Source: a virus (lineage: Duplodnaviria; Heunggongvirae; Uroviricota; Caudoviricetes). From it: a stretch of DNA of 64,000 nt. A model generated the notes under the pieces. It was given only the letters and a program-made list of their open reading frames with translations, ran no database searches and was not told the DNA's origin. Numbering within the stretch: position 1 is the stretch's first letter; the number at the start of each line of letters is the position of its first letter. A program made the position numbers and the translations under genes. Location: IMG/VR virus record IMGVR_UViG_3300031740_000001; one strand, 5' to 3'. Of the stretch, positions 1-49,900 are shown in pieces.

Positions 1-194
1 AGCTGGTGGACACTGCACCAACCGGCACGCTGGTGGTCACAGGATTCGATGATCATGACCCAGATGCGTTTCATCGTGACATTGGTCAGATTGGGCTCAA
101 TGCGCCGGTCTTCCCGGAAGTATTAGATCGTCGGCACGCGTGGAGCGCGCCTGCTGTTATTGAAAACCTGAAAGATAGGGGATTTGGCAAATGA
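1..194 (+). CDS. 3' end of a gene that begins upstream of the window (partial); hypothetical protein
   Basis: The open frame continues to position 1 without a stop. It ends at 192-194 and overlaps the next ATG (ATGA). Confidence 0.3.
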   Translation, partial: LVDTAPTGTLVVTGFDDHDPDAFHRDIGQIGLNAPVFPEVLDRRHAWSAPAVIENLKDRGFGK

Positions 195-1033
195 AGATTG
201 CAGTCACAGGTGGCGGTGGCTTCCTAGGACAAGCCGTCATGATGGCTGGTTCGATGGCAGGACATACCATGCTCTCTTTCGATAAGGCAAATGGCTTTGA
301 CGTGCTCGGCCAGCTGGACCAGCTCCACGACTTCAAGCCGGACAGCATCATCCACATGGCTGGAGTGCTTGGCACCCATGAGCTTTTCGACACTCCAGCA
401 ATGGCCATCGACGTGAACATCCATGGCACGTTGAGGATTCTGGAGAGCTGCCGCGTTCTCGGCGCTGGCTACGTAGGCATGAGTTTGCCGCCTGTCTTCC
501 CCTCCATCTACACGGCCACCAAGCTCTGCACGGACCACCTGGCCACGGCGTATCACCACACTTACGGTGTCCCAACGGCAAAGGTGCGCGCCTTCAACGC
601 TTTTGGGCCTGGCCAGAAGTTCGGCGCTGGCCATCCGCAGAAGATCATCCCGACTTTCTCGGTCTACAGCTGGGCGCGTAAGCCTATCCCGATCTGGGGC
701 GATGGCGAGCAGTGCGTGGACTTGATCGACGCTGCGCAGGTCGCTCGCGTGCTCATCGAGGCGACTGGCGTCGAGGATGACACGATGATTGACGCTGGTT
801 CTGGTGTCAGCGCAACCGTCAACGAGGTCGCAAATTACGTCAACGCTGTCACCGGATCACTGGTTGGAGTGGAATACTTGCCGATGCGCCGTGGTGAAAT
901 CCCCACGGAAATCGTTGCACTGGGCCAGGGGTGGGATCGGCTGTCATTTCGTCCCTCGTTCAACGATGACTTCTTGAAACAGACGATTTGGTCCTACCAA
1001 AGCCATCCAGCAGTCACCAGCGGTGAGCTGTGA
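191..1033 (+). CDS. NAD-dependent epimerase/dehydratase (SDR family nucleotide-sugar enzyme)
   Basis: N-terminal Rossmann motif VTGGGGFLGQAV. Length is 280 aa. It sits in an operon with glycosyltransferases. Confidence 0.7.
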   Translation: MKIAVTGGGGFLGQAVMMAGSMAGHTMLSFDKANGFDVLGQLDQLHDFKPDSIIHMAGVLGTHELFDTPAMAIDVNIHGTLRILESCRVLGAGYVGMSLPPVFPSIYTATKLCTDHLATAYHHTYGVPTAKVRAFNAFGPGQKFGAGHPQKIIPTFSVYSWARKPIPIWGDGEQCVDLIDAAQVARVLIEATGVEDDTMIDAGSGVSATVNEVANYVNAVTGSLVGVEYLPMRRGEIPTEIVALGQGWDRLSFRPSFNDDFLKQTIWSYQSHPAVTSGEL

Positions 1034-1719
1034 AAGTAGCCATTGTTACCGCTATTTACGGCGAATACGAGCACCCGAAAGCGCTTCCTGAAGAGCTAGC
1101 CAGCGGGAACTATGACCTCCCCTGCTATCTCTATACGGATAGCGAACGTGTCCAGTATGAAGCCTTGGACTTGGGGTATACAGCCATCTTGGACGAGATG
1201 GAAGATATTGCTACGCCGATGCTCAAGGCCAAGTACTGGAAGACCCATCCGACCAGCGCGGCACCGTTCCGTGACGCGTCAATCTGGCTGGATGGGTCAA
1301 TGATTATCACGTTATCAGGATCGGATTTCATCGCCAAGTGCGAGGCTGCATTGGGCGAAGATGACATTTCGTTTACCCCGCACCCGTTGCGCACCTGTAT
1401 CATGCCCGAGGCCAGCGTGACTGCCGCGCTCGCGCGCTACAGCGACTGCAAGCCGATCGAGCAGGTCGAGTTTTATCGTAACGTCGTTGGCCACCCGATG
1501 AACTGGGGGCTCATGGCCAGCGGGGCGTTCACGGTTCGCCATGGCGACAACACAGAGCAGTGGGGCAAGCTCTGGTGGGACGAGTGCAATAACTGGACCT
1601 ACCAGGACCAGCTCTCTTTGCCGGTGATTACCCGGCTCATGACGATGGAGGGGAAACTGAAGTGGAATTTGGGGATGCCGTGGGCTCAATGGTGGGGGAT
1701 AGCGGAGCACGGTCGCTAG
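1030..1719 (+). CDS. hypothetical protein, possibly a nucleotide-sugar transferase-like glycosylation accessory protein
   Basis: Its start overlaps the stop of the upstream gene (ATGA). It is co-oriented inside the glycosylation cassette. No confident motif was found. Confidence 0.45.
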   Translation: MKVAIVTAIYGEYEHPKALPEELASGNYDLPCYLYTDSERVQYEALDLGYTAILDEMEDIATPMLKAKYWKTHPTSAAPFRDASIWLDGSMIITLSGSDFIAKCEAALGEDDISFTPHPLRTCIMPEASVTAALARYSDCKPIEQVEFYRNVVGHPMNWGLMASGAFTVRHGDNTEQWGKLWWDECNNWTYQDQLSLPVITRLMTMEGKLKWNLGMPWAQWWGIAEHGR

Positions 1720-1836
1720 GAGAAACTTGGTGCAGCCATCCAGGTGGCAATACCGTGCATTACTTCGGCAACGGTATGGAGCTACCGTGCGAATGTGGTG
1801 AGCGTCCGTATTTTCAGAGCCTGTACATCGATCTAG

Positions 1837-2430
1837 ATGACGAAGGACCCGAAGATGGAATTTGATCCGGGCATCACCGTAGTCATCCCGAGCATTCCGC
1901 CACGGCGCGAGCTGCTCAAGCGCGCCATAGCGTCAGCCGTAGATCAGATCTACCCAGCGGCAGCCATTTCCGTTGCCGTGGATACGGAGCGGAAAGGTGC
2001 CTGGCACACGCGTAATCGTGCTCTTTCAGCTGCTAGAACCGAATGGACAGCCTTCCTTGACGACGATGATGAGTTCCTACCAGAACACCTCAACGTCCTT
2101 CATAATCATGTTGTCAACTTCGGTGCGGACATGGCGTACTCGTGGTTCAACACCGTTCCTTTCGGTGGTGACCCGTTCCCGGCTTGGTTCGCCGATGCGC
2201 CCTGGAATCCGGAAGAGCCTCGTCACACAACGATCGTCATGCTTGTTAGGACTCGACTTGCGCAAGAGATCAGCTTTACATCACCTGTCGAGGGAGATCC
2301 TTTCGGCAACGAAGATTGGCGCTTCATTCTTGAGTTGAACCAGCGCGGTAAGATCGTGCATGCACCTCACCGTACGTGGTTGTGGCATCACGATTCTGCA
2401 AATACCTCTGGAAGGCCGGACAGGTGGTGA
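1837..2430 (+). CDS. glycosyltransferase family 2 (GT-A fold)
   Basis: Carries ITVVIPSIPPRRELLKRAIASAVDQ followed by an acidic DXD-type motif (FLDDDDEF). Confidence 0.65.
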   Translation: MTKDPKMEFDPGITVVIPSIPPRRELLKRAIASAVDQIYPAAAISVAVDTERKGAWHTRNRALSAARTEWTAFLDDDDEFLPEHLNVLHNHVVNFGADMAYSWFNTVPFGGDPFPAWFADAPWNPEEPRHTTIVMLVRTRLAQEISFTSPVEGDPFGNEDWRFILELNQRGKIVHAPHRTWLWHHDSANTSGRPDRW

Positions 2431-2915
2431 ACTGTCTTCATTGCCTAAAAGAAATCCAAATAGTGCGAAGTAGAGACAGAAAAAAACGTTTCTGCACTCG
2501 ATGGTGTTGGACGCAATACCGGGGTGATCAGATCGAGACTAAAACAACACGTTTTTCGGGTGATACGTATAACGTATACGCGTTATCCCTTGATGGAGCT
2601 ACTTACCGATATGTAGGCGCAACAAATTACATAAACATTGATCAAAGACGTGTTCAATGGTTCGCGCAAAGATTCAGGTTCACGACACCTGTTTCTCGAT
2701 GGGTAACAGAGTTCTGCGCTCAAAACTCTGATTTGAAGATTGAGTTTCTTGGTTCGGATAATGACAAAGATCGTTTGCTCGAACGCCGATGGATTGAACA
2801 ACTTCAAGCATTAGGATTTGATCTCTTAAACCGGCAAACAGGTGGCGATCGTGGTTTCACCCAACCATCTTGGAGCAAAGGTCTGAAGACTGGACCTCGA
2901 AAGGGAAATAGATGA
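2427..2915 (+). CDS. putative GIY-YIG-like homing endonuclease with an N-terminal Cys-rich zinc-finger segment
   Basis: It sits in a locally AT-rich stretch (2440-2900) inside a GC-rich operon. The GTGA start overlaps the upstream stop. The motif YNVYALSLDGATYRYVGATNYIN...R...W resembles the GIY-YIG core. The N-terminal segment CLHCLKE...CTRWCW is Cys-rich. Confidence 0.45.
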   Translation: MNCLHCLKEIQIVRSRDRKKRFCTRWCWTQYRGDQIETKTTRFSGDTYNVYALSLDGATYRYVGATNYINIDQRRVQWFAQRFRFTTPVSRWVTEFCAQNSDLKIEFLGSDNDKDRLLERRWIEQLQALGFDLLNRQTGGDRGFTQPSWSKGLKTGPRKGNR

Positions 2916-3994
2916 AGGTATATGTATTTCCTGCCGATATGACTGGTTGTGGGATGTATCGCTTAATATGGCCATCCGAAGAGCTGATCCGGCGCGGCCA
3001 TGATGTTGTCGTGGTGCCGCCTCAACAGCGTGACAACATGATGCAGGCGACCTTGCGCAACGGCGTCGTGACTAGCGTGAAGATCCCCACTGACGCGGAT
3101 GTCATCGTTCTTCAGCGCGTCACTCACCGGTACCTGGCGCAGGCCATCAAGGTGATTCGGCAGTCTGGCGTAGCCGTTGTCGTGGACATGGACGACGATC
3201 TGACTTGCATCCATCCGTCAAATCCAGCGTTCAACGCGCTGCACCCGGTCAACGGCAACGTTGATCACAACTGGCAGAACACCTTGGCAGCCTGCGATAA
3301 CGCGACTATGGTCACGGTCTCCACGCCTGCGCTGGTCGGTCGTTACGGCAAGAAGACTCCAGCGCACGTTTTGTACAACATGGTTCCCGAACGCATGTTG
3401 GACGTTCCGCACGAAGACTCAGACGTTGTCGGATGGGGTGGAGCGGTCTTCAGCCACCCGACGGACCTCCAAGAGCTAGGACCGTCCATTGCCGGGGTTC
3501 TACGGGACGGTGGGGCGTTTAAAATCGCTGGCCCTATAGATGGGGTGCATCGGGCGCTCGGACTACCTAGCGACGCTCCTGTGGCGACTACGGGCATAAT
3601 TGCGGATATCCGGGCGTGGCCATTAGCGATCAACTCGATTGGTATCGGCGTGGCACCACTGGCGGATTCTCGTTTCAATAATGCCAAGAGCTGGCTGAAG
3701 CTGGCCGAATACGCGGCTGTAGGCGTGCCTTGTGTCGGCTCACCGCGTGAAGAGTACCGGCGTCTGCATCGTCTAGGCGTTGGCCTTATGGCTAAGAATC
3801 CGACCGAATGGGCCAAGCAGTTGCGCAGGTTGCGCGGCTCGGAGAGCTTGCGCGAAGAGCTGTCGTACAAGGGCCGTGCCGTCATGGAAACGTTGACGAT
3901 CGAAGACAATGCTGAGCTGTGGGTCGAGGCCTGGACCGAAGCGCTGATCCGTGATCGCGCTGGCCGTAACCCGCTGGTCCGTAGCGGAATCTAG
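2912..3994 (+). CDS. glycosyltransferase (GT-B / GT1-GT4-like, putative)
   Basis: 360 aa with an ATGA overlap with the upstream gene. The N-terminal segment MKVYVFPADMTGCGMYRLIWPSEEL is typical of GT-B enzymes. It lies in the glycosylation cassette. Confidence 0.5.
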   Translation: MKVYVFPADMTGCGMYRLIWPSEELIRRGHDVVVVPPQQRDNMMQATLRNGVVTSVKIPTDADVIVLQRVTHRYLAQAIKVIRQSGVAVVVDMDDDLTCIHPSNPAFNALHPVNGNVDHNWQNTLAACDNATMVTVSTPALVGRYGKKTPAHVLYNMVPERMLDVPHEDSDVVGWGGAVFSHPTDLQELGPSIAGVLRDGGAFKIAGPIDGVHRALGLPSDAPVATTGIIADIRAWPLAINSIGIGVAPLADSRFNNAKSWLKLAEYAAVGVPCVGSPREEYRRLHRLGVGLMAKNPTEWAKQLRRLRGSESLREELSYKGRAVMETLTIEDNAELWVEAWTEALIRDRAGRNPLVRSGI

Positions 3995-12429: not shown

Positions 12430-14177
12430 TCAGACTTCTCGCCCCAACGTGGGCCGAAGGACACACTGGCCGTGATCGGCACAGGGTACTCGTTGCTGTT
12501 CATGACCTGCTGGAGGGTGTGCGCCGCGTCCTTCATCAGCTCTTGGGGAATGTCCAGGATGATCTCATCGTGAACGGGAAGGATCATGTACGGGCCGAGG
12601 CCAGCGGCGTGAAGCTCAAGCTGCTTCTGCTTGAACATGCTCGCGGCCCATCCGGAGATCAGGTAGTTGATGAGCGCGTACTCCTTGCCGGGGTCGGCAA
12701 TGTGATGCCGTCCAGTGAGCGGGCACTGGATGAAACCTTGCTGCATACCTAGTCTGTAGACGTAATTGATGTATTGCTCGATCTTCGGGTATGCCGCGTT
12801 CAGCTGGTTGTTGATGAACAGCATTTGCTCGAACGAGACACCAGCGGTGACCGCTTGACGGGCGATACCCGCGCCATAAACCTTGGCGTACATGGCGCTC
12901 TTGGTGGGGGAGCGCCGTGGATCTGACTTCATCAGGTGTGGATCCTGGAAAATCTGACGCGCGATGGTAACGAAGAAATCGTCTGGTCCATGGAATGCGG
13001 ATCGCAGGCCTTCATCACCCGAGAGGATGGCTAGCCCGCGCATCTCGATCTGGTCGAAGTCGCAAAACATCATGATGTTGCCAGGACGTGCCGTGATGCT
13101 GTTGCGGACCACCTTCACACCAGGCGTGTCTGTGTTGGTGCGGGGGAGGTTCTGGAAGTTCGGCTCACTCATGCTGCAGCGACCATGCCGCGCGCCGAGC
13201 GTGTTCAAGCTGGGGCGGATGATCGAATTTGAATCTGCGTTATTGAGATAGAATTGTAGGTAGGTGCTGGCCATCTTCTGCAACTGGCGACGGGAGAGAA
13301 CGGCCTTGGCCAGCGGGTGGTCGATGCCTTCCAGAACGTCAGCGTCCAGGCTCAGCGCACCCTTCTCGGTTTGCTTGTCGAACTGGAAGCCAGCGCGTTG
13401 CAGCACCTCGATCACTTTCTGGTTGGAACCAGGCGTGATTCCGTACTCAGCCTTGACCCACTTCTCGACCGAAACGCAGTACTCGCGAAACTGCTTCAGA
13501 TAGGTCTCCACGTGCGGAATGTCCACGTGAACGCCGTTTTGCATCATGTCGCGCGCTACCCACTGGTAGGCAGTCTCCAGCTCCACGGCGAACTGCGCGC
13601 CGTGCTGGGCGACGATAGGCTCGTGGTGCTCACGAAGCTGGTAGGTCAAGACAGGGTCCAGCGCGCCATATCGCCAGTACCAGGGGTAATCCCACGGCAC
13701 AGTCGCCCACGTCCAGCCGTTCTGCTCCATCGCTTCGTCCAGGTACTTCTGACCTGCATAAGCGGTAGGGTCCACGTGCCGGGAAGCCTGCGCCTTGAGC
13801 GCGCGGGACATATGCGGCTCAATGACGTGGCTCATTACACCAACGTCTTTGATCCGGTGCTTTTCCAGCGTGACGCCCGCCTTTTCCAACATGGAGTAGT
13901 CGAAAATGGCGTTCATCAGGTCTATCGGGCCTTCGTGCTGGCGCACGATGTCGAGAAATAGTCCCCACCAGAGGTCTTTGGGCAGCAACCAGCCGTGCTC
14001 AGCGTTTCCTATCTGAACGGTGCGGACGTAATCGTCTCCCTGCCACTTCAGCCCGGTTGTTTCAGTATCTATAGCTATCGATCCATTAAGGCCTACATCC
14101 TGCCGAAACCAGTCACACATGTTTTTTGCGTCATCAAAATTTCGGACAAGATGTAATTGCACATTATCAAGACTCAT
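12414..14177 (-). CDS. family A DNA polymerase (Pol I-like) with a 3'-5' exonuclease domain
   Basis: Exo I motif is IAIDTETTGL. Pol motif B is RRSPTKSAMYAKVYGAG and motif C is LPVHDEIILD. Confidence 0.85.
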   Translation of the reverse strand: MSLDNVQLHLVRNFDDAKNMCDWFRQDVGLNGSIAIDTETTGLKWQGDDYVRTVQIGNAEHGWLLPKDLWWGLFLDIVRQHEGPIDLMNAIFDYSMLEKAGVTLEKHRIKDVGVMSHVIEPHMSRALKAQASRHVDPTAYAGQKYLDEAMEQNGWTWATVPWDYPWYWRYGALDPVLTYQLREHHEPIVAQHGAQFAVELETAYQWVARDMMQNGVHVDIPHVETYLKQFREYCVSVEKWVKAEYGITPGSNQKVIEVLQRAGFQFDKQTEKGALSLDADVLEGIDHPLAKAVLSRRQLQKMASTYLQFYLNNADSNSIIRPSLNTLGARHGRCSMSEPNFQNLPRTNTDTPGVKVVRNSITARPGNIMMFCDFDQIEMRGLAILSGDEGLRSAFHGPDDFFVTIARQIFQDPHLMKSDPRRSPTKSAMYAKVYGAGIARQAVTAGVSFEQMLFINNQLNAAYPKIEQYINYVYRLGMQQGFIQCPLTGRHHIADPGKEYALINYLISGWAASMFKQKQLELHAAGLGPYMILPVHDEIILDIPQELMKDAAHTLQQVMNSNEYPVPITASVSFGPRWGEKSEWVYA

Positions 14178-14599
14178 GATCTGCTCCGTGCTGCTTTAGA
14201 CATTTTTTCACGAGCTTCAGGAGAATGTTTCTTACCAAAAAATGGGTTCTTTTCACCATTCAAATCTGGACGAGTGCGTTTTCCCTCTGCGTAGCTTTTT
14301 CGTAGACTTGCACTTATTCTTTGTTTTATTTCTTCAGAATGAGGTTTATTTAATCGTGGCGGGTGAATACGTTGGTGACAACTGCGACAAAGCCAGATCA
14401 AATCGAGGATGTGTTCATCGCTGTAGCCATTATGGTGATGCCCATCTAGATCTCTATCCGGAGAACTTCCTCCACAATGATCGCAACAAGAACTTCTGAT
14501 CAGGGCACCGTCTCGGAGAGCTTTTTGCACAGCAGCATGAACTTTCCGGCGACGATAACGGCTAATCGGAGCAGGTGGGTTGACGTTTTCCAGTCCCAT
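14174..14599 (-). CDS. HNH endonuclease (free-standing, likely homing)
   Basis: It has CCDHCGGS...DGHHHNGY...LCRSCHQRIH. Base composition is locally AT-rich. It is inserted between the polymerase and the dCMP deaminase with ATGA/stop coupling. Confidence 0.75.
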   Translation of the reverse strand: MGLENVNPPAPISRYRRRKVHAAVQKALRDGALIRSSCCDHCGGSSPDRDLDGHHHNGYSDEHILDLIWLCRSCHQRIHPPRLNKPHSEEIKQRISASLRKSYAEGKRTRPDLNGEKNPFFGKKHSPEAREKMSKAARSRS

Positions 14600-16552: not shown

Positions 16553-16965
16553 GTTCTTTCTCCTTTTGGTTCTTGGGTTGTTCCTTATTTGATAATCAGG
16601 AGGTTAGCATATTCTGGCACGCCTGCAAGTCAGCCACAACCACAGCAGGTGCATATTGCCATTACCAGGGCAAACACGGCGTACAAGAAACGATCAAGGT
16701 TGCCTTGCTGTCCTCTTCTCATTCCTTCTCCTTCCGGAATTGATGTTGGGCCGCAGGGTAAATCCGGAAACCCCTGCGGCCCGCACCAGCCTGTACGTCG
16801 GCTGTCCACCGTCCAGATCTTTCTGTCCTAGGAAACAGGGCAACTGGAGTCCCAGTCAGAATCCCATCTGACCAGCGGGGATGTTACTTTTGTTTTAACC
16901 ATCTCCCCCTGTTGAGAGTTTGATGGGCTGGAAGTCGTCATCGCACATCCAATATTTCGACCTCG

Positions 16966-17051
16966 GGCGAACGGGAGGACTCGAACCTCCAACCAACGGT
17001 GACTTCTCGCGCGATCCCTCACCGCTGCTCTGCCAATTGAGCTACCTTCAC
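16966..17051 (-). ncRNA. tRNA-like element (Leu-type acceptor and D-arm, canonical T-arm, aberrant 16-nt anticodon-region loop); possible pseudo-tRNA
   Basis: The minus-strand RNA has a 6/7-bp acceptor, then a D-arm GCTC-AATTGGCA-GAGC. A CGGTGA/TCACCG stem encloses 16 nt. The T-arm is GGAGG-TTCGAGT-CCTCC. No 7-nt anticodon loop can be formed. Confidence 0.35.
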
Positions 17052-17225
17052 CATTGAGTGAGTTTCTGTGTTTAGCGTCGTAAAACCCAGCTCCGGAAAA
17101 TCCGACGTTGCCCACCTGTTAAGGCGTCGTAACCCCGGTGGCCCGAGTTACGCCGTGCGACGCTCTGCCAAGCTGAGCTACAGGATAGTACCGGACTAGC
17201 TCTCATTCGAGCGTGGCGGGTATTT

Positions 17226-17253
17226 TATCCAGCCTGGATTTGAACCAGGGACC
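17226..17253 (-). ncRNA. orphan tRNA 3'-half-like module (T-arm CCTGG-TTCAAAT-CCAGG plus a 7-nt acceptor-like tail)
   Basis: It has a perfect canonical T-loop. No matching 5' acceptor lies within 100 nt. Confidence 0.3.
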
Positions 17254-17262
17254 TTCGCAACG

Positions 17263-17338
17263 TGGGAAGGACAGGATTCGAACCTGCATTACGCCATGCT
17301 TTTGCCCGGAGCTGTTGCCTGATCAGCTACTTCTTCCC
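17263..17338 (-). ncRNA. tRNA-like element (6/7-bp acceptor and canonical T-arm GCAGG-TTCGAAT-CCTGT; no anticodon stem-loop)
   Basis: The body is of tRNA length (76 nt). Only a GCTG-loop-CAGC hairpin is formed in place of the D and anticodon arms. Confidence 0.3.
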
Positions 17339-17659
17339 TTGAAGATGAGTTCTTGTTATTTTACGTCGTTGAAACCCATCCCCACAAACTTCGACGTTTG
17401 CCCAGAGTTATACAGATGTGGGCGTCTCTGCCTGGATTGATACTCGCCAAATGATGCCACATACCAGGTAAGGCGGCGTGAAGATGAGAGGGCTCGCACC
17501 TCCATTACCACCCTTGCGAGTGGCGTCCTGCATGTGGCTTTGGGATTGGTTACCTACCGGCACTTTTAAACGACATCTTCTCCGCCACGGGAGCCTATAC
17601 GGCTGAGCTGCCGAAGCCCTCTAGCACGATCGTGTTCCGTGACTTGCACTGCAGTACCG

Positions 17660-17733
17660 TAGCGGAGGCTGGATTTGAACCAGCGACCTACAGGTTATGA
17701 GCCTGGCGGGCTACCGAGCTGCCCTACTCCGCT
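17660..17733 (-). tRNA. tRNA-Met (anticodon CAU; elongator type, could be Ile2 if lysidinylated)
   Basis: It forms a canonical cloverleaf: AGCGGAG-TA-GGGC-AGCTCGGTA-GCCC-G-CCAGG-CTCATAA-CCTGT-AGGTC-GCTGG-TTCAAAT-CCAGC-CTCCGCT-A. It is 74 nt with no encoded CCA. Confidence 0.75.
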
Positions 17734-17746
17734 TTGGCGGGCTTGC

Positions 17747-17760
17747 GGTGGATACTCACC
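17747..17760. repeat. conserved hairpin GGTG-GATACT-CACC, one member of the GGYG-GATACT-CRCC family. Other copies lie at 17862-17875 and, degenerate, at 17424-17438.
   Basis: It has an identical 6-nt loop with compensatory stem changes (GGTG/CACC versus GGCG/CGCC). It occupies the T-arm position of a degenerate repeat unit. Confidence 0.4.
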
Positions 17761-17824
17761 CGTTGCCCAATTCGAACACCTTAACCCTAGTATCAGGGAG
17801 AGGTAGACCTCCAAGGTATTCGAC

Positions 17825-17847
17825 ACCAGGGTATCTCTCCCCGGTCG
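17825..17847. repeat. 23-nt direct repeat ACCAGGGTATCTCTCCCCGGTCG (copy 1; copy 2 at 18045-18067)
   Basis: The two copies are exact. On the minus strand it folds into a 6-bp stem with a G·U pair and a 7-nt loop. Each copy follows a CACCAAG linker downstream of a tRNA-like or hairpin module. Confidence 0.5.
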
Positions 17848-18066
17848 CTTTGGTGGATCGCGGCGGATACTCGCCTTGACCCTTGCACCACCGTTAACCA
17901 GTATCGGTTGGCCCTTTCGGGCGGGCAATGGTGCCTTCAGGTACCACGCACTAGGTGCCGTACCCTCTGGGTCGCCTGAGGCGGCTTCCCAGGTCCTGCT
18001 CACGCGGTGCTGTTGCCAGTCCGTAGCGAGCAGTACCAGGGTATCTCTCCCCGGTCGTTCTTGGTG

Positions 18067-18153
18067 TCTAGACGGTCCGACTCGAACGGACTGTACACCC
18101 CGGAGGACCCTTCTACGGGACTGCCCTTGGATCCGGTTTTGAGTAGCGTCTAG
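18067..18153 (-). ncRNA. tRNA-like element (perfect 7-bp acceptor CTAGACG/CGTCTAG within a palindromic GTCTAGAC pair, canonical T-arm GTCCG-TTCGAGT-CGGAC, 52-nt non-canonical body)
   Basis: It is 87 nt. No anticodon stem-loop with U33 can be formed. Confidence 0.3.
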
Positions 18154-18266
18154 ACAGGTCTTCATCATCCAAGCATCACAGGATTGTCGCCCCGCACTGC
18201 CCAGGTCGTACTGCTTTTTGTTGCTCCGTGGCCTTGCTAACCACTTGGTTCCACTAGATTAGCGAA

Positions 18267-18548
18267 TTAGAACTTCGCTGTCAACTTGCGGCGTTTGTCC
18301 TGGTCAGGCGCGAATGGGCTTTTCTTGATCTCTGCCGGTTTGTCGATCTTGTGGCTGGAAATGACCGTGTTGCTGGTTTCCAGCCCTTCGAGCATGCGCG
18401 CCACTTCGGCGCGTTGCCTGCGTGGCCCAGTGATCATGTCGTATCCGAGCCACACCAGGAAACCGACGAAGGCAAGGATAATAGCCCAAATCAGACCATT
18501 CGCAACGTTACCAAACCATTCAACGTCAGAGGTGTAGAAAACGTTCAT
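18267..18548 (-). CDS. small membrane protein
   Basis: It has a TM helix LIWAIILAFVGFLVWLGY. Its ATGA start overlaps the upstream stop. Confidence 0.5.
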   Translation of the reverse strand: MNVFYTSDVEWFGNVANGLIWAIILAFVGFLVWLGYDMITGPRRQRAEVARMLEGLETSNTVISSHKIDKPAEIKKSPFAPDQDKRRKLTAKF

Positions 18549-30270: not shown

Positions 30271-30345
30271 GCGCGCGGCGAGTATTGCGCGACCGAGAGT
30301 GCCACTGGGGAAAAAGGCAGCGTGTGCAGGGCGTGAATCCTGTGG

Positions 30346-30397
30346 GGAGTGGAGCTGAGTAACGGCAGCCTGTCAGGTTCGAGTCCTGGCCACTCAC
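30346..30397 (+). ncRNA. tRNA-like minihelix (acceptor stem, a short hairpin, canonical T-arm TCAGG-TTCGAGT-CCTGG), no anticodon arm
   Basis: GGAGTGG-AG-GCTG AGTAACGG CAGC-CTG-TCAGGTTCGAGTCCTGG-CCACTCA. The acceptor has 6/7 bp. It is 52 nt long and lies in a non-coding region, 35 nt upstream of gene 30431. Confidence 0.35.
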
Positions 30398-30430
30398 GTA
30401 AGATAAAGACAACGAGGAAGGAAGACGGAA

Positions 30431-33566: not shown

Positions 33567-33639
33567 GCGGGCGTAGCTCAGCTGGCAGAGCTTCCGACTT
33601 TTACTCGGAATGTCGCAGGTTCGATCCCTGCCGCCCGTA
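33567..33639 (+). tRNA. tRNA-Lys (anticodon UUU)
   Basis: GCGGGCG-TA-GCTC-AGCTGGCA-GAGC-T-TCCGA-CTTTTAC-TCGGA-ATGTC-GCAGG-TTCGATC-CCTGC-CGCCCGT-A. It is 73 nt with no encoded CCA. Confidence 0.8.
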
Positions 33640-33675
33640 CGTAAGGACATCATCGAAACAGAAAAGGAGAGCACC

Positions 33676-45186: not shown

Positions 45187-46992
45187 ATGCGCACTGCCCG
45201 AACGCTGCGTCCGTGGAGTCTGGAAGCTTTGATTCAGCGGGAGAAGACCTTTGACGGTCTGATCGAAAAAGCCGTCAAGATGACGTTGCGTCCGCTGGCG
45301 ATGAACGTTGACGGGCTGCTGACTGCTGCTGTGGAAGCGGAGATGAGCCTGTCCTCTTCGCTAGCCGCAACGATGATTGGCCCTACGGTCAGCATGGATA
45401 GCGCTGGTGCATTGTCTGTGACCTGGGATCGATTCGTCGATGGTGAACTGCTGCCATTTCTCGCGGATACGTTTATGCATGGTGTGGTACAGGCTCATGT
45501 GGGTCTTCCAGCTGACACACCGATTGTCGCTGACTTCATTGCCCAGGATTACCTACTGACTGCGGCTAATAACCTGAAGAACATTGGTGATCTCGTCTGG
45601 ATGGCGATTCAGGCCGAACTTCAGGAAGGCGTCAATGCCGGAGAGGACATGCGGCAGCTCGCTGGAAGGGTCCGTGCGGCCTCTCAGGTGACCGCTGGGC
45701 GTGCAATGACGATTGCCCGTACCGAAGTGCACCGTGCGGCAGAAGCGGGCTCTCTGACGCAAATGAGGCTGTCCGGCTTTACCAACTTCGAATGCCAGAA
45801 GCGCTGGCTTGCGACCGAAGACGAGCGCACCAGACTTTGGCACATCCAGGCTGATGGCCAGACGGTGGGCCTGAACGAGGTCTTCGACGTAGGCGGGGAA
45901 GGGTTGCAGTTTCCTGGCGATCCGCACGGACGTGCGGATAACGTCATCAACTGCCGATGCACTATGGAGTATCTTTTCCCGGATGATGACGAGGACGACG
46001 CTCTGACCAGCTCTGGAGCGCCTAGCCAGATTACCTATGCGTTTTGGACCGAAGAGGACGAGCAGGCGCACCCGCGCGATCGTGCGGGTCGCTTCCGGCG
46101 CAAGGACGAGCACGTTGGCAAGGTGCTCAAGGACATCGAAGAGAAGGTGTCTGTTGCGTCCGAGCCTGAGATTTCGCTTCGGGACATCTTGCCGCTGGTC
46201 AACAAGGACACGATCAAACCCCCAAAGATTCCCGATGACATTGTCGATCAGCTGCATAGTGTATTCACCGGTACTTTTGGTGGATTTCGGGCAGAGGTGT
46301 CGAACGTCGAATGGGGCAAGGGCAATCATCGGATGATGGTGTCTGGCAACATTCTCAATGCTAAGGGCCAATCAGTCGGTAGTTTCGAGCGAGTTTTTAA
46401 GATCAACTATCAAGGTGTTTTCATGGTTGATCACACTGGTTTGTACATGGATCGAGACGTACAGGGCCAGGGGTTTGCTAAGGCGTTCAACAAGAATGCT
46501 TTCAAGAACTACAAGAAGATGGGCATCGAACGGGTACAGCTGCAGGCTGACATCGACGTAGGCGGCTACGCGTGGGCTCGCGAAGGGTATGACTGGGCAC
46601 CCGACGATGCTCCATCGCTTGCAGAAACTCTTTCTAGAATTGATGATGCCCGCGCGCCACAAATGACGGAACCTCCGCCAAGGACCCAAAAACAAATTGA
46701 TGATGTTTACTTCCCGATGTCACATCATCTTTATCGGATACCGGAAGAGCGTCGAGAAGAACAGGCCGCACTAGTTCGTAAGCTCTGGCTTGATGTTGGT
46801 GGCACAGTCGACATGGATACACCAGACGACGAAGTTCCTGACATCGTGGAAATGTGGCCGACCCCGTATGAGCTGAGTCAGCTCGGCCGCTGGGAAGGCG
46901 CTGGCAAAGATGACTGGTGGATCGGCAAGGCCATCATGATGGGCTCGAACTGGATCGGGGTGAGGTATCTTGACGATCTCGTTGACGCGTAG
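45187..46992 (+). CDS. MuF-like (SPP1 gp7 family) minor capsid protein with a ~340-aa C-terminal extension of unknown function
   Basis: Phage_Mu_F signatures are present: ...AMTIARTEVHRAAEAG... and the hallmark VINCRCTMEY (N-C-R-C). They end near residue 260. About 340 residues follow. Confidence 0.6.
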   Translation: MRTARTLRPWSLEALIQREKTFDGLIEKAVKMTLRPLAMNVDGLLTAAVEAEMSLSSSLAATMIGPTVSMDSAGALSVTWDRFVDGELLPFLADTFMHGVVQAHVGLPADTPIVADFIAQDYLLTAANNLKNIGDLVWMAIQAELQEGVNAGEDMRQLAGRVRAASQVTAGRAMTIARTEVHRAAEAGSLTQMRLSGFTNFECQKRWLATEDERTRLWHIQADGQTVGLNEVFDVGGEGLQFPGDPHGRADNVINCRCTMEYLFPDDDEDDALTSSGAPSQITYAFWTEEDEQAHPRDRAGRFRRKDEHVGKVLKDIEEKVSVASEPEISLRDILPLVNKDTIKPPKIPDDIVDQLHSVFTGTFGGFRAEVSNVEWGKGNHRMMVSGNILNAKGQSVGSFERVFKINYQGVFMVDHTGLYMDRDVQGQGFAKAFNKNAFKNYKKMGIERVQLQADIDVGGYAWAREGYDWAPDDAPSLAETLSRIDDARAPQMTEPPPRTQKQIDDVYFPMSHHLYRIPEERREEQAALVRKLWLDVGGTVDMDTPDDEVPDIVEMWPTPYELSQLGRWEGAGKDDWWIGKAIMMGSNWIGVRYLDDLVDA

Positions 46993-49900
46993 GCAGCGTT
47001 TGGCGGCTGTCGCCAAGGCTCACGACGCATGGGTTGAGCAGAATTTGTCTGCTGTAGCAGGTGAATTCGATCCTGCCGCGCACCCGAAGGACGGTTCGGA
47101 CTACAACCAGCACAATTTGGACGTTGACGCGACGGGTGGGATGGAAGACGAACTTGCGCAGCTGCTGGCGGGCGTATTTGACGACCCACTGACTGCCGCT
47201 GGGGATCCCGATTGGGATCCGTCCGAGCATCCGCGCGGCCCAGACGGCAAGTTCATTGAGAGCGTCGGCGCTGCTGACGCGGCAATAAAAGAGCTGGAGC
47301 AAGCTCAAGCAGTTGCTTCGCTGGCCAAGAGTGTTGCTTATCTTAAGGGTGAAAACTACAAGGCTCTTGAAATCCAAGCAGACTTGTTGAACATCCAGAA
47401 GGATATTGATACTTACGAGAAGGGGAAAAAGGCCCTCCTCAAAAAGGGGAAGACTGGCCCTAGCCCAGCTGGGGCTACTACCAAGGTCACGCCGAAAAAC
47501 CTTCAGGTGGGTCAGTACGTCAATAGTCAGAGCAGAGATTATCTCAAGGAGTCGCCCAAACAGATCAAATCGATTAGCAAAAAGGGCGATCATCACTATC
47601 TTCTTGATTTTGAAGATGGCTCCAACCTTTATGTGACGAATAACGAAAAGGTTGTTCTGCACTCGCAGCCTGCTGCGAAGGAACCTCTTACAGCGGTTAA
47701 AGCAGACGATCCGGATGTCAAAAATAAGGTCCTTATCGGTCTCCCAGATGGCCGTGGCGCGTATGTCGAGCGCGATGATCCTGCTGCGCCGAAGGTGCGC
47801 GACATCGAGACGGACGAAATTCTTTTCACCGGAAAGAATGACGCTGATCTTTATCAGCAAATGGCAGATCACTTTGGTGTTGAGCTGAAGTATACCGAAG
47901 ATCTCACCAGTAAGATGAAGATCTTTACGCCCAAGAAAAAGGGTGCAGCTAAGCCGATTACCGCTTGGACCAAGACGATCTTCAGTGGAAAATACGGAGA
48001 TGGTGAGGTAGTTGCTGTCAAGGATGATGGCAGCGCGCGGCTGACCTGGGACGAAGGCAGCAAAAAATTCCAGTGGGAAAAGAAGACTCCTGGCGGCTGG
48101 AAGCTCGCCGGGCTGCTCACCAAAAAGGACGCTTACGCGAAGTTCAAAGACGAGAAGACCAGCTGGCAGTATCCTGTGCCTGGCGCGGCAGTCACGGAGG
48201 ATGCACCACCTTCACCTTTGGAAAACTTGCAGTCGCATAGCCTTATCGATAGTGCAATAGCTAAAGGAGATTTCTCCCAGCTTAAGCAGATAGGTGGAAA
48301 CGCTGGCACGACACCAGGCGGCTTCTTTGAGGCACCAGACGGCTCACGCTGGTACGTGAAAGGACAGAAGACACAAGAACATGCTAATAATGAGGCTCTC
48401 GCTTCAGCTCTATACCGCGCAGCTGGCATCGATGTACCCGAAGTAATTCGGGGTAGTGGTACGCCAGGACTTCCAGGCACGGCGCATACGGCTACACGAA
48501 TAGTCGAAGGTGCGAATCAAAATCTGCCAGAAGCATTAAATGATCAAGATTATGTCGATAAGATACGAGAAGGATTCGCTCTTGATGCATGGCTTGCCAA
48601 CTGGGATGTCGTTGGTGAAGGCGATGAAAATCCTTGGGGCAATATTATTGAAGGATCAGACGGAAAGCCGCATCGAATTGATGTTGGCGGAGCATTACTT
48701 TTCCGTGGGCTAGGAACGTATAAAGGCTCAGCTTTCGGTAAAGAAGTTACTGAATTCGAGCGTATGCGTGATACCAGCAAGCCTTCACGCCATGTCAAAA
48801 TTTTCTCGGGCATGAGTCAAGAGCAGATTGACGCATCTGTTGCACGAGTTAAAGCGATTTCTCCTGATCAAATCCGGGAGCTTACATCAAAATATGGTAT
48901 GGATCCGGAACTCGCAGATCTTCTTATTGATCGTCGCGAAAACCTTATTATGAAGGTACCTGCTCCTGATCCCGTCAAAATTCCTGCGCCTACACCAGTT
49001 ATTTCTCCTACCTCTAGCGCAAAGAAGACTGTCTGGACCAAGGGTAAGTTCAACACGACACTTGCGTACAAGAGCAATTACCAACATCGTGAAATTGTTG
49101 GTATGACGGAATCTGCTGGAGAGACGAAACTTATCCTGTGGGAAAGCGGAAAGTTTCGTTCATACCGCCATGTCTTCGGCAGCGGATGGCAGTACGAAGG
49201 CACTTGGACGAGCAAGAAAGCTGCTCTTGAGGCGCTTAAAGATGCGCCACTTTATCGGCCCCCAGCGGGCACGATGGCGGACACGAACAAGGACTTCATT
49301 CATGCGGATCTCTTGAATCATGGCGGTCCGACCATTACGGCGACGGATAGCACTGATCTTTTTCAAGAGCTATACGACGCTGTTCCGCCCATAAGCACTG
49401 AAACTACCATAGTAGACGGTATCGGCATTATTAAGTCACTTGATGGTGACAAGGCAATTGCCTACAACAACGGCGGCGACAACCTAGGTGGCATTCACCA
49501 GAACTCAAAGGGTGAGTGGGTTGTTACCCCAAAGAATTACCTACATCCGTTTATGTCAACTAGCAAAACTTACGCATCGAAAGAAGCAGCGCTCAAGGCA
49601 CTTGTACAGGCAGATAACGCCTACATGGGCTCTATCGGAGCGCGTTCTGACGTTCCTGCCGCGCCTGCCGCGCCTGACATTGAAGAAATCCCGCTGACCA
49701 AGAAAATGCCGAAACTGACTGCTGCTCAAATCGAGAAGCAGAACGGCGCTATTCCGAAGAGCCTAAAACAGGCCCAGCGGACGGATTTCTTGAAAAACTT
49801 CAAGGAAAACAGTTCGGTCGGCTTTGTGCACTCTGGTGAAGACGATGCGCAAAAGGTCTTCACAGCAGTGGTGTACGCGGTAAAGAAGCACAACGCTACC

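Follow-up and report, generated by a model that had tools for sequence, protein, structure and literature searches.

Why a phage should keep one decoding tRNA among many tRNA-shaped RNAs that lack an anticodon is the question raised by a non-coding locus in the 64,000-nucleotide stretch of viral DNA analysed here (the window). The usual explanations for phage tRNA genes are codon supply or the replacement of tRNAs that host defences have cut. A preliminary description of the locus offered two views, a tRNA array decaying into structured RNAs or acceptor/T-arm minihelices retained on purpose. The first is contradicted by modules that are conserved across phages, with stems kept by compensatory changes; the second gains support, in its general form, from the same conservation and compensatory changes. 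At least seven RNAs in the locus keep the tRNA top half with the anticodon arm replaced, and they form a maintained set of tRNA mimics. In our best reading, which we hold at a probability of about 0.6 on sequence comparison, positions 16630-18284 of the minus strand would be a dedicated transcription unit kept across a clade of uncultivated phages, and would yield one decoder together with stable non-decoding tRNA mimics that may serve as decoys or adaptors. The tRNA-like modules cannot decode, because their anticodon arm is replaced or their gene order is permuted.

Five canonical T-arms had been described within 16900-18260 on the minus strand. Scanning for a TTCRANY loop on a 5-bp stem yields exactly five, at 18075, 17668, 17271, 17233 and 16974 (lowest coordinate of each), whereas 2000 dinucleotide shuffles average 0.0035, and the remaining 62 kb hold just two more on both strands. 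The single full cloverleaf, tRNA-Met(CAU), is called by both ARAGORN and Rfam at 17659/60-17733 (66.8 bits); it is the only decoding tRNA of the locus and is found in every related locus. These predictors do not call all five T-arm units standard tRNAs. The RF00005 gathering score of 29 bits is passed by 17660-17733 and formally by TL2 (42.7 bits), which attains its score only if a 20-nt insert within the anticodon loop is passed over; the ARAGORN label 'Pro-AGG' for 16966-17051, which contains this insert, is meaningless. Besides the Met, TL2 and TL1 units, two of the five T-arms have no tRNA call, and M1, TL-G, the permuted module and U gave no RF00005 match. The other units had been said to lack a 7-nt anticodon loop, and indeed a 5-bp stem with a 7-nt loop, U33 and a purine at 37 occurs only in tRNA-Met, with no anticodon-type arm in M1, TL-G or U. 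The open reading frames over the region, already suspected to be spurious, are mechanical: the 157-aa frame and the others match no PHROG, lack conservation in relatives, and were rejected as genes. An exact-protein look-up of the 176-aa ORF returned no record.

The locus lies between a primase on one side and the DNA polymerase gene block on the other, in dsDNA phages with an apparently lytic lifestyle. Through homologues of the flanking 229-aa ORF (41-96% identical) we reached ten syntenic loci from related uncultivated phages; L001 denotes the same sequence as the window. A non-coding gap of 0.8-2.4 kb containing a tRNA-Met is present in every one (10/10). The RNA blocks are often conserved above the flanking proteins, neighbour proteins being 41-76% identical between phages: a 27-mer is 100% identical in L007, L008 and L009, and window positions 17851-17969 share 92% identity with L008/L009 over 119 nt, where the flanking protein reaches only 53%. 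Module content differs between loci. The position of the last module holds a seemingly complete tRNA-Tyr(GUA) in L005 and L014, and in L020 the D region is joined directly to tRNA-Met. No partner protein is encoded adjacent to the locus. No annotated close relative came to light: when 50,697 phage records were searched with the nucleotide sequence of the region, the tRNA-Met alone was matched, and a megablast with 12 kb gave no match. A primase-based search for related loci in IMG/VR found no relative, and exact scans of IMG/VR for the 23-mer described below and for the D-hairpin pattern had no match; the same two scans of JGI metagenomes gave one true locus, a duplicate of L003, and the chance matches L017 and L018. 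Scanning IMG/VR and 185,579 genomes for the H1 loop plus loop motif produced three matches, all within protein-coding genes and rejected as chance. The conserved modules match no Rfam family at threshold, TL2 formally passing RF00005. The features are collected in Table 1.

Table 1. Features of the locus in the order of the minus strand (window coordinates)
Feature	Position	Strand	Basis
P1, putative promoter	18256..18284	-	-35 TTGACA 18284-18279, 17-nt spacer, -10 TAATCT 18261-18256
U-a, long copy of U	17851..18206	-	Covariance model R1 matches
M1, 94-nt tRNA-like RNA within U-a	18062..18155	-	Sequence, fold, T-arm scan
U-b, short copy of U	17735..17847	-	R1, 106.6 bits
tRNA-Met (CAU), canonical	17659..17733	-	ARAGORN; Rfam 66.8 bits
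Block F, structured spacer with UUCG-capped hairpin	17583..17658	-	Conserved
TL-G, acceptor/T-arm RNA	17480..17580	-	Alignment A7 with L002 and L007
Block H, hairpin CCUGG...CCAGG	17431..17468	-	Blocks conserved in L002, L009, L014, L019
Leader X, GGGCAAACGUCG hairpin and A/C-rich tail	17346..17403	-	Repeat families D3, I5
TL1, tRNA-like RNA	17265..17338	-	Rfam tRNA 21.6 bits, below 29
Circularly permuted tRNA-like module	17156..17259	-	Rfam YrlA 32.2 bits, E = 1.5e-4
Hairpin CGUAAC-UCGGGCCACCGGG-GUUACG	17128..17152	-	Loop identical in L015
Leader Y, GGGCAACGUCGG...GGGUUUUACGACGCUAAACACAGAAACUCACUCAA	17054..17113	-	Orthologues in L013, L014, L015, L019
TL2, tRNA scaffold	16966..17051	-	Rfam tRNA 42.7 bits
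D region, structured RNA	16744..16964	-	Starts at discriminator of last tRNA(-like); in all ten loci
30-aa ORF, MRRGQQGNLDRFLYAVFALVMAICTCCGCG	16630..16722	-	Translation; strong ribosome-binding site

U is a new tRNA-like RNA fold present in two copies, and it absorbs two elements that had been described separately. The 23-nt exact repeat is identical at 17825-17847 and 18035-18057 (0 expected), but it is no part of a repeated linker: the CACCA beside it belongs to one module as its encoded 3' NCCA end, and the 23-mer forms the first hairpin of the RNA that follows. The GGYG-GATACT-CRCC hairpins (plus strand, 17740-17760 and 17855-17875) are likewise real and differ by paired changes, but they belong to U and are not simple T-arm replacements. 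That linker and hairpins are parts of one larger RNA had been missed. U-a opens with a 5' domain, ACCUGGG...GCUUGGAUGA, for which no convincing structure was derived, and contains hairpin H1 (18035-18057, loop AGAGAUA) and a structured insert. A GAUACU loop caps the hairpin at 17896-17909 and an AGUAUC loop the T-position hairpin at 17862-17875; the acceptor-like stem GGGUC/GAUCC (17878-17882 with 17855-17859) includes G3.U70, and the 3' end is ACCA (17851-17854). U-b has H1 at 17825-17847, a long-range helix P2 (17813-17823 with 17772-17782), the GAUACU loop at 17789-17794, the AGUAUC hairpin at 17747-17760, and a GGGC/GCCC stem with G3-C70, G73 and GCCA (17735-17738). Its minimum-energy fold equals the structure derived by hand (z = -3.37). 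Comparison with relatives shows that the pairs of U covary, including the loop of the GGYG...CRCC hairpins. The 38 pairs are 96.7% paired, against 76.6% after shuffling and 38-49% with partners slid, and 26 have changes on both sides; most of these counts come from an alignment fitted to model R1, which is weak in its poorly aligned rows (the second U-a fragment, 17966-18057, at 30 bits; L002; L005). Although the model did not include the 6-bp kissing loop, its pairing is complete (100%), with AU, GU, CG and GC variants at one position, and the loops AGAGAUA and GAUACU/AGUAUC are invariant or co-vary. The predicted elbow of U is a pairing of the AGUAUC loop with the GAUACU loop of the upstream hairpin, in place of the T-loop/D-loop contact, and the short acceptor stem would stack on the AGUAUC hairpin.

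The acceptor end of U reads G1-C72, G2-C71, G3.U70, (N4-N69), C5-G68, A73 and an encoded CCA, with G.U at position 3-70 in 9/12 aligned rows. The bacterial alanine identity set comprises A73, G2-C71, G3.U70 and G4-C69, and minihelices carrying G3.U70 accept alanine (PMC9976931). This alanine-type end (G3.U70, A73, CCA) is present in U-a and most homologues and absent from U-b; alanine identity is not universal in U, since U-b has G3-C70/G73 and L019 has A3-U70. In L005 and L007, U ends GGGGC...GCUCC-ACCA, which matches the end of E. coli tRNA-Ala and tmRNA. The CCA of U stands 1 nt upstream of tRNA-Met +1 in 7/10 loci, so that RNase P acting at the tRNA-Met 5' end would leave U ending in ACCA plus one nucleotide. 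G1 of U is joined to upstream RNA, and charging would thus need an RNase P cut there or tolerance of a 5' extension. U resembles tmRNA and tRNA-Ala minihelices in its alanine-type end. Unlike tmRNA, it has no T-loop, tag reading frame or pseudoknot series, its 5' acceptor strand is internal and just 5 bp, and the hairpin with which its kissing-loop elbow forms lies upstream of that strand. An identity as tmRNA was rejected, since ARAGORN made no tmRNA call, permuted forms included, in the window or any locus, and the tmRNA models of clan CL00001 gave no match at E up to 10. Known ribozymes were also rejected, with no Rfam support.

The remaining modules replace the anticodon arm in several ways. 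TL1 has acceptor, D-arm and T-arm, its anticodon arm giving way to a 6-bp stem capped AAAA (GAAA in L015), with compensatory changes in the D stem and the substitute stem between L001 and L015, the one relative available for TL1 and likewise for the permuted module. In TL2 the acceptor, D and T arms are kept, while the place of the anticodon arm is taken by a 16-nt loop, which contains the palindrome UCGCGCGA, on a stem of 8 bp. Across the eight members of the TL2 family, pairing in the acceptor, D and T stems reaches 97.7% and 9/16 pairs are changed on both sides, in a MAFFT alignment that is not structure-fitted. All eight (8/8) have an extended hairpin and no 7-nt anticodon loop; the outer stem is 5-10 bp, or 7-8 bp in the window copy and its closest relatives, and closes larger loops or hairpins. 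The palindrome has P about 0.01 by shuffling and is significant only in L001/L009, which share it, and in L015, where it is simply a hairpin; self-complementary apical loops are weakly supported as a general feature of TL2. M1, which lies in the window only and has no counterpart in relatives, has an acceptor stem of 8-9 bp, GUCUAGAC, together with a canonical T-arm (GUCCG UUCGAGU CGGAC) and an encoded ACCA, and lacks a D-arm and an anticodon loop; comparison with L007 shows that it splits the GGAUGAGAAC|GACCGGGG junction. A sixth acceptor/T-arm RNA, TL-G, had been overlooked at 17480-17580, its variant T-loop being UGCGAGC. It combines the acceptor GAAGAUG/CAUCUUC, the conserved UCGUUUAAAAG, an inner hairpin and the T-arm-like GGAGG-UGCGAGC-CCUCU, and is 85% identical to L002; in L007 the acceptor becomes GGUGAGA/UCUCACC (four compensatory pairs) and the inner hairpin covaries. 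Single-sequence folding energies are ordinary for most modules (z about 0 to -1.6).

Also overlooked was the circularly permuted order at 17156-17259: a 5-bp anticodon-like strand, the variable loop AGGUC, T-arm, acceptor-like stem (7 bp, closed by a 39-nt loop), D-arm and return strand. Two compensatory pairs distinguish the anticodon-like stems of L001 and L015. The best non-tRNA Rfam match, to YrlA (RF02553) over 17135-17274, scores 32.2 bits against a gathering score of 69, and the L015 counterpart scores 29 bits. The module shares with YrlA the permuted topology, the anticodon-like stem made from the two ends and the production, as predicted, of several tRNA-like RNAs from one precursor; its 7-bp acceptor-like stem is as in Mycobacterium smegmatis YrlA, and in the Rfam alignment this closed stem-loop separates T-arm from D-arm, as YrlA requires (Chen et al. 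2014, PMC4201824). Unlike in YrlA, the module is flanked at its 5' side by the acceptor strand that belongs to the tRNA-like RNA before it. The flanks are CCCACGU-UGCGA and UCGCA-CGG, with no extended helix; both the motif GNCGAAN0-1G and the Ro-binding helix are absent at the module and not conserved in L015. YrlA is encoded within 4 kb of Rsr (PMC4201824), with a distance of about 4 kb on the same strand taken as the criterion here. Pfam scans of 40 larger window ORFs, including all of at least 450 aa, gave no TROVE domain, nor did the precomputed Pfam labels of genes in the related loci. With a score far below 69, no Ro60/Rsr gene among the ORFs and labels scanned, and neither the motif nor the helix of the 5' and 3' ends present, membership of YrlA was rejected.

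The putative promoter P1 overlaps the stop of the upstream 93-aa ORF. The pattern TTGACA-N15-GCTAAT, equivalent to TTGACA-N17-TAATNT, stands at the same position in 9/9 syntenic loci checked, which suggests that P1 works as a promoter; a generic promoter scan missed it because the -10 matches at only 3/6 positions. At the other end, the D region spans the stretch from the last tRNA(-like) RNA to the ribosome-binding site of the 30-aa ORF in all loci. One of its hairpins, GAGGUCG...CGACUUC, is invariant, and a terminal one of 11 bp carries the conserved loop GUUUCCGGAUYUA (one base different in L009 and L020). RNAalifold gives 11 pairs changed on both sides, and Rfam gave no match. Homologous small ORFs are seen in every locus, and the 30-aa ORF is probably the last gene of the unit.

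Under the reading we prefer, a precursor would start at the conserved promoter and be cut at each tRNA-like module by host RNase P together with 3' trimming or CCA-adding enzymes, releasing stable small RNAs in the manner of an engineered 'tRNA scaffold'. Comparable non-decoding RNAs or tRNA-like handles are phage T4 species 1 and 2 (rnaC, rnaD), MALAT1-mascRNA and the MHV68 TMERs; they lie in or beside tRNA clusters, undergo RNase P/RNase Z processing and CCA addition via acceptor/T-arm features, and the RNase P cut at a downstream tRNA(-like) RNA sets the 3' end of the RNA upstream. To our knowledge, their sequences and folds are unrelated to the locus and none has a kissing-loop elbow or an alanine-type end. 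The TL2 family resembles a natural version of the engineered scaffolds of Ponchon and Dardel, keeping acceptor, D and T arms while a hairpin replaces the anticodon stem-loop; such scaffolds are processed, stable and nuclease-resistant in E. coli (PMC3753655). Unlike them, the family is natural and phage-encoded, with 14-50-nt inserts and predicted processing. The mimics may act on proteins that recognise the top half or the CCA end of tRNA, by binding, titrating or recruiting them, with the replaced anticodon arms displaying phage-specific loops. For U, candidate partners would be AlaRS, EF-Tu and SmpB; for the set as a whole, they would be defence enzymes that target the acceptor end. The acceptor/T-arm half of tRNA is just what several newly described defences attack, and defence enzymes reading the acceptor stem, T-arm and CCA include MenT (PMC7450476), toxSAS (PMC11559606) and Cas12a3 (PMC12851939). 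A bolder version, put forward only tentatively, would make U an aminoacylatable new class (alanine end, kissing-loop elbow, 3' end matured by an RNase P cut at the neighbouring tRNA-Met) that forms, with the anticodon-less scaffolds and the Ro-independent permuted tRNA, a counter-defence or takeover kit, in which MenT/AbiE-type nucleotidyltransferases, toxSAS, Cas12a3-like nucleases or AlaRS/SmpB might be soaked up or redirected; alternatively, U might supply Ala-RNA to a tRNA-dependent transferase.

Neutral drift of phage tRNA pseudogenes that have lost their anticodon arms would account for modules that are clearly tRNA-derived, for the tRNA-Tyr(GUA) of L005 and L014 and for a module content so variable that M1 is confined to the window. 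We nevertheless consider it highly improbable, as compensatory changes keep the stems across phages whose proteins are about 50-60% identical, loops are invariant or co-varying, non-coding blocks exceed the neighbouring proteins in conservation, and the replaced arms are regular extended hairpins rather than random debris. A Y RNA system, in which the permuted module and perhaps others would bind a host Ro60/Rsr ring, tether an exonuclease and remodel RNA decay, draws on the YrlA match with its shared order of T-arm, closed acceptor-like stem and D-arm. YrlA is found in 22 phages, one precursor can yield several Y RNAs, and RNase P cleaves the M. smegmatis RNA, to which CCA is added (PMC4201824). 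This system seems very doubtful here given the score, the missing TROVE protein among the window ORFs scanned and the missing motif and helix; its authors also caution that a T-arm followed by a D-arm is a source of false positives (PMC4201824).

A role in cis is unlikely but has some purchase on the arrangement: the modules would be mainly RNase P/Z cut sites and stabilisers that punctuate an operon transcript and, for the small ORF and replication genes downstream, set both 5' end and translation, with the released RNAs as by-products. The unit does lie within a co-directional gene block without intrinsic terminators, and the D region reaches the 30-aa ORF ribosome-binding site in all loci; in L020 it is joined to tRNA-Met. 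One tRNA would suffice for punctuation, however, and the conserved loops, the kissing-loop fold, the alanine-like CCA end and the tandem copies of U would be left unexplained; a second conserved promoter-like motif also precedes the 229-aa ORF. Alternatively, U, the tRNA-Met/linker and D might together form one large ornate RNA or assembly like GOLLD or ROOL, possibly of oligomers held by loops. Both GOLLD and ROOL occur in phages close to tRNA islands; one GOLLD lies downstream of a tRNA-Met, and tRNAs sometimes fall within the GOLLD linker (PMC12286853). The likeness extends to structured domains conserved around a variable, tRNA-containing middle and to loop-loop contacts, as the loops UCGCGCGA in TL2 and UCCGGA in the D hairpin are self-complementary, a weak hint of a homo-oligomeric cage, and the kissing-loop pair could form in trans too. 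We regard such an assembly as quite unlikely: the domains of the locus are smaller and have the shape of tRNA, a precursor that is cut up is suggested by the encoded CCA ends and the tRNA-like junctions, and the palindrome is significant in so few loci. Membership of GOLLD or ROOL was rejected: with lax filters and E up to 10, neither model matched the U and D regions, and the related loci gave no match either. It is finally conceivable that the tRNA fragments act as DNA, as attP-type sites or part of a replication origin. Sites of the attP type frequently contain a tRNA 3' end, and the locus sits between divergent primase and replication genes. This is extremely improbable because the kissing-loop covariation makes sense for RNA alone; moreover, the window ORFs scanned include no integrase, the modules all share one strand, G.U pairs have been retained, and the G.U/A.U/G.C exchanges show strand specificity.

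One decoder kept beside many anticodon-less acceptor/T-arm RNAs maintained under clear selection points to a function that depends on tRNA shape and not on decoding. U represents a new way of building a tRNA elbow, in which a 6-bp loop-loop helix that covaries is combined with an acceptor end of the alanine/tmRNA type. The modules would add several RNA families to Rfam and, given a host, a defined experimental system.

The intervening elements are conserved as well. Leader X stands upstream of TL1 and is a paralogue of leader Y, which stands upstream of TL2 and is almost invariant in L013, L014, L015 and L019, its stem CGUCG/CGACG becoming CGUUG/CAACG in L014. The A/C-rich leader was rejected as a T7-like promoter, as the window has no single-subunit RNA polymerase and the leader stem covaries. 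In L015, the hairpin at 17128-17152 has 3/6 pairs changed on both sides. Together, tRNA-Met and block F are 82% identical to L005, with one compensatory change beside the UUCG loop of block F, and the block H hairpin comes after tRNA-like modules in several loci.

The perfect T-arms from which the preliminary description had started were recovered. A scan for a 5-bp stem closing a loop TTCRANY found exactly five on the minus strand of 16900-18260 (at 18075, 17668, 17271, 17233 and 16974), compared with a mean of 0.0035 in dinucleotide shuffles, and only two further perfect T-arms on both strands of the rest of the window. That description had also recognized a single full tRNA, and ARAGORN and Rfam (66.8 bits) agree on one standard tRNA, tRNA-Met(CAU). 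Its exact 23-nt repeat, with zero copies expected by chance, and its hairpins with paired base changes are likewise real. With 42.7 bits the tRNA-like module TL2 passes the Rfam tRNA threshold, a pass that depends entirely on the model skipping 20 nt inserted in the anticodon loop of TL2; ARAGORN labels it 'Pro-AGG' in the window, and Asp-ATC, Phe-AAA or a 4-base anticodon in relatives. These shifting labels indicate that TL2 has no real anticodon. A second tRNA-like module, TL1, scores 21.6 bits as a tRNA in Rfam over 17265-17336. The features of the locus and of its surroundings are listed in the table.

Coordinates of the array, its flanking elements and other features of the window
Feature	Position	Strand	Description
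Promoter-like motif before RNA unit	18256-18284	-	TTGACA-N17-TAATNT, conserved
U-a	17851-18206	-	long copy of U, with extra structured domain and M1
M1, in U-a		-	94-nt tRNA-like insertion, also ends in ACCA
U-b	17735-17847	-	short copy of U, with G3-C70 and GCCA
tRNA-Met(CAU)	17659/60-17733	-	standard tRNA
TL-G	17480-17580	-	tRNA-like module
TL1	17265-17338	-	tRNA-like module
Permuted module	17156-17259	-	circularly permuted tRNA domain
TL2	16966-17051	-	tRNA-like module
TL2 apical loop	16990-17015	-	
D region	16744-16964	-	structured RNA
30-aa ORF	16630-16722	-	MRRGQQGNLDRFLYAVFALVMAICTCCGCG
Promoter-like motif before 229-aa ORF	16604-16629	-	TTGC..-N-TGTGCTAAC, conserved
Homing endonuclease gene	14174-14599	-	NUMOD3/HNH type
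Epimerase and glycosyltransferase cluster	191-3994	+	
tRNA-like element	30340-30400	+	in non-coding gap
tRNA-Lys(UUU)	33567-33640	+	67.8 bits
Structural region	46970-52950	+	

No close relative of the phage was found among deposited phages, and its DNA polymerase shares no more than 35% identity with actinobacterial phage DNA polymerases. The array is flanked by a primase-helicase gene of divergent orientation and by a gene block that runs in the same direction as the array (229-aa ORF, 190-aa ORF, dCMP deaminase, homing endonuclease, DNA polymerase A, SNF2 helicase and PD-(D/E)XK nuclease). Pfam scans of 40 larger window ORFs, including all of at least 450 aa, revealed no integrase, Ro60/TROVE, RtcB or CCA-adding enzyme. 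Related loci, given L numbers here, were located via homologues of the 229-aa ORF (41-96% identity) and traced to contigs of uncultivated phages. Besides L001, which is identical to the window, ten further distinct loci share the gene order of primase, ~170-aa ORF, ~90-aa ORF, a gap of 0.8-2.4 kb and 229-aa ORF, and tRNA-Met lies inside the gap of every related locus. Conservation of the non-coding blocks is striking: the 27-mer AAGAACGACCGGGGAGAGATACCCTGGT recurs with 100% identity in L007, L008 and L009, where the 229-aa proteins are 53-58% identical to that of the window, and L008/L009 share 92% identity with window 17851-17969. The gap 3' of tRNA-Met is a hot spot for insertions (L012 3855-4260, L002 3831-4154, L014 3434-3961), with an HNH-endonuclease-like ORF in L012 and L013, a small lipoprotein-like ORF in L002 and a 175-aa ORF in L014. 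Module content also varies by locus: L020 has no module between tRNA-Met and the downstream structured RNA, termed the D region, and L005 and L014 carry an apparently complete tRNA-Tyr(GUA). The homing endonuclease gene that separates the dCMP deaminase gene from the DNA polymerase gene is absent at that site from all relatives examined, e.g. L002, L005 and L007.

The sequences 5' of tRNA-Met, read in eleven loci, revealed an RNA, here named U, of which the 'linker' and 'hairpins' previously described as separate are parts. U comprises a 5' domain (ACCUGGG ... GCUUGGAUGA) that holds a canonical T-arm in three loci; 3' of it, H1, a hairpin whose AGAGAUA loop is invariant; P2, a long-range helix around one variable hairpin and one hairpin with the loop GRUACU; an acceptor-like stem of 5 bp (GGGNC/GNUCC), whose two strands flank a 4-bp hairpin with the loop AGUAUC; and a 3' end ACCA. 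A covariance model built from four sequences matched every complete relative and two copies in the window. In the alignment derived from this model search, the 38 pairs are 96.7% paired, compared with 76.6% for column shuffles and 38-49% for slid partners, and in 26 pairs both partners have changed. The model did not contain the loop-loop helix GAUACU/AGUAUC, yet no sequence breaks its pairing; one of its positions covaries (GGUACU/AGUACC in L002, GCUACU/AGUAGC in L015) and is G.U in L012 and L019. The minimum-energy fold of U-b agrees with the model (z = -3.37). U has no match in Rfam, and pattern scans of IMG/VR and 185,579 genomes returned only chance matches inside genes.

The acceptor end of U in most loci reads G1-C72, G2-C71, G3.U70, A73 and CCA, with G.U as the 3-70 pair in 9 of 12 rows. 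The identity set for alanine in bacteria, which is functional in minihelices too, consists of A73, G2-C71, G3.U70, G4-C69 and G20 (PMC9976931). U matches most of this set (A73, G2-C71, G3.U70), whereas G4-C69 differs among loci and G20 is not applicable; in the reading favored below, U would be an alanine/tmRNA-type acceptor mimic. In seven loci a single nucleotide separates the CCA of U from position +1 of tRNA-Met, a spacing at which RNase P, in cutting tRNA-Met, would form the 3' end of U.

The other modules are conserved in structure as well. In TL2 and seven homologues, aligned with MAFFT without fitting to structure, pairing reaches 97.7% across the acceptor, D and T stems (slid controls, ~50%), and 9 of 16 pairs are altered on both sides. 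The anticodon arm is in all eight an extended stem of 5-10 bp (7-8 bp in the window copy and its closest relatives) that closes a larger loop or hairpin, and the loop motif AUCGCGCG(A/U)GA is common to L001, L002 and L009. TL2-type RNAs would, by analogy, behave like the engineered tRNA scaffold (PMC3753655). Their apical loops are often self-complementary (UCGCGCGA in L001 and L009, CGCGCG in L002, UCGUACGA in L013, UGAUCA in L014), significantly by shuffling for L001/L009 and L015 only, and may hint at loop-loop dimerization. TL1 has an AAAA-capped stem in place of the anticodon arm (cap GAAA in L015), with compensatory changes in the D stem and the substitute stem. TL-G, a module absent from the preliminary description, has a 7-bp acceptor stem, fully re-paired in L007 as GGUGAGA/UCUCACC, and the variant T-loop UGCGAGC. 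The spacers (Block F, Block H, the CGUAAC hairpin and two 'leader' copies) are also conserved, with compensated stems.

The D region is a structured RNA of 210-255 nt in 10 of 10 loci, starting at the discriminator of the last tRNA or tRNA-like RNA. Its first hairpin (GAGGUCG...CGACUUC) is invariant, its terminal hairpin, of 11 bp, covaries strongly, and it also includes a single-stranded stretch, GUUAAAACAGAAGUAAC. The 13-nt loop of the terminal hairpin (GUUUCCGGAUYUA, one base different in L009 and L020) is conserved and contains the palindrome UCCGGA. The D region has no match in Rfam; it could be a leader or riboregulator, or act in partnership with the tRNA-like RNAs. Between it and the second promoter-like motif, the 30-aa ORF is conserved in every related locus. 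It has a strong ribosome-binding site, encodes one hydrophobic helix and a Cys-rich tail, and in L009 and L015 is part of a longer ORF, by fusion or extension. At the stop codon of the ORF upstream of the array, 9 of 9 loci checked carry TTGACA, 15 nt and then G(C/T)TAA(T/A), which by its sequence reads as a putative -35/-10 promoter with a 17-nt spacer. Together with the motif before the 229-aa ORF, it suggests that both belong to one phage promoter type with GCTAAY at its end. No intrinsic terminator was predicted at the locus.

Conservation and covariation exclude the decay of a tRNA array that had been proposed. The common denominator of the modules is that the acceptor/T-arm half of tRNA is kept, while the anticodon is lost or replaced. 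This half is read by RNase P, 3'-end and CCA enzymes, AlaRS and several acceptor-end-directed defense enzymes; we therefore favor a tRNA-mimic reading, inferring every functional step, in which the array would be a processed set of stable tRNA mimics acting as decoys or adaptors. Acceptor-directed defenses are plausible targets of such mimics (PMC7450476, PMC10435456, PMC11559606, PMC12851939), and Mom, a tRNA-dependent phage transferase (PMC13219725), represents another possible use for charged RNA.

A Y RNA is one rival to this reading. The permuted module, whose anticodon-like stem shows two compensated pairs in L015, matches Rfam YrlA at 32 bits; as a YrlA candidate it fails the defining features (score, Rsr neighbour, Ro-binding motif), and the YrlA paper warns that the order of T-arm then D-arm yields false positives. 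The locus might otherwise act in cis, as punctuation or as a leader for the small ORF, form a GOLLD-like assembly, or be a DNA element. As for the favored tRNA mimics, such mimicry is already known from tmRNA, YrlA, T4 stable RNAs and viral tRNA-like structures. Neither Rfam nor the searchable literature yielded counterparts of the kissing-loop tRNA-like fold of U, of natural tRNA scaffolds and a Ro-independent permuted tRNA, or of the assembly of these RNAs into one conserved phage unit.

Elsewhere in the window, a further tRNA-like element at 30340-30400 combines an acceptor GAGUGG/CCACUC, a D-arm-like GCUG...CAGC and a perfect T-arm (UCAGG UUCGAGU CCUGG) without any anticodon arm, and is called by neither ARAGORN nor Rfam. 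The second canonical tRNA, Lys-UUU, is distant from the array. The structural region encodes, directly after a 601-aa MuF-like protein, a 1244-aa protein with a C-terminal ADP-ribosyltransferase toxin domain; the adjoining gene encodes a 749-aa protein with a 2H/LigT-type 2'-5' RNA ligase-phosphoesterase domain. Both are possible ejected effectors, and the latter may act on RNA or tRNA ends. An NAD-dependent epimerase/dehydratase gene clusters with three glycosyltransferase-like genes; this cluster may function in the modification of DNA or surface glycans.
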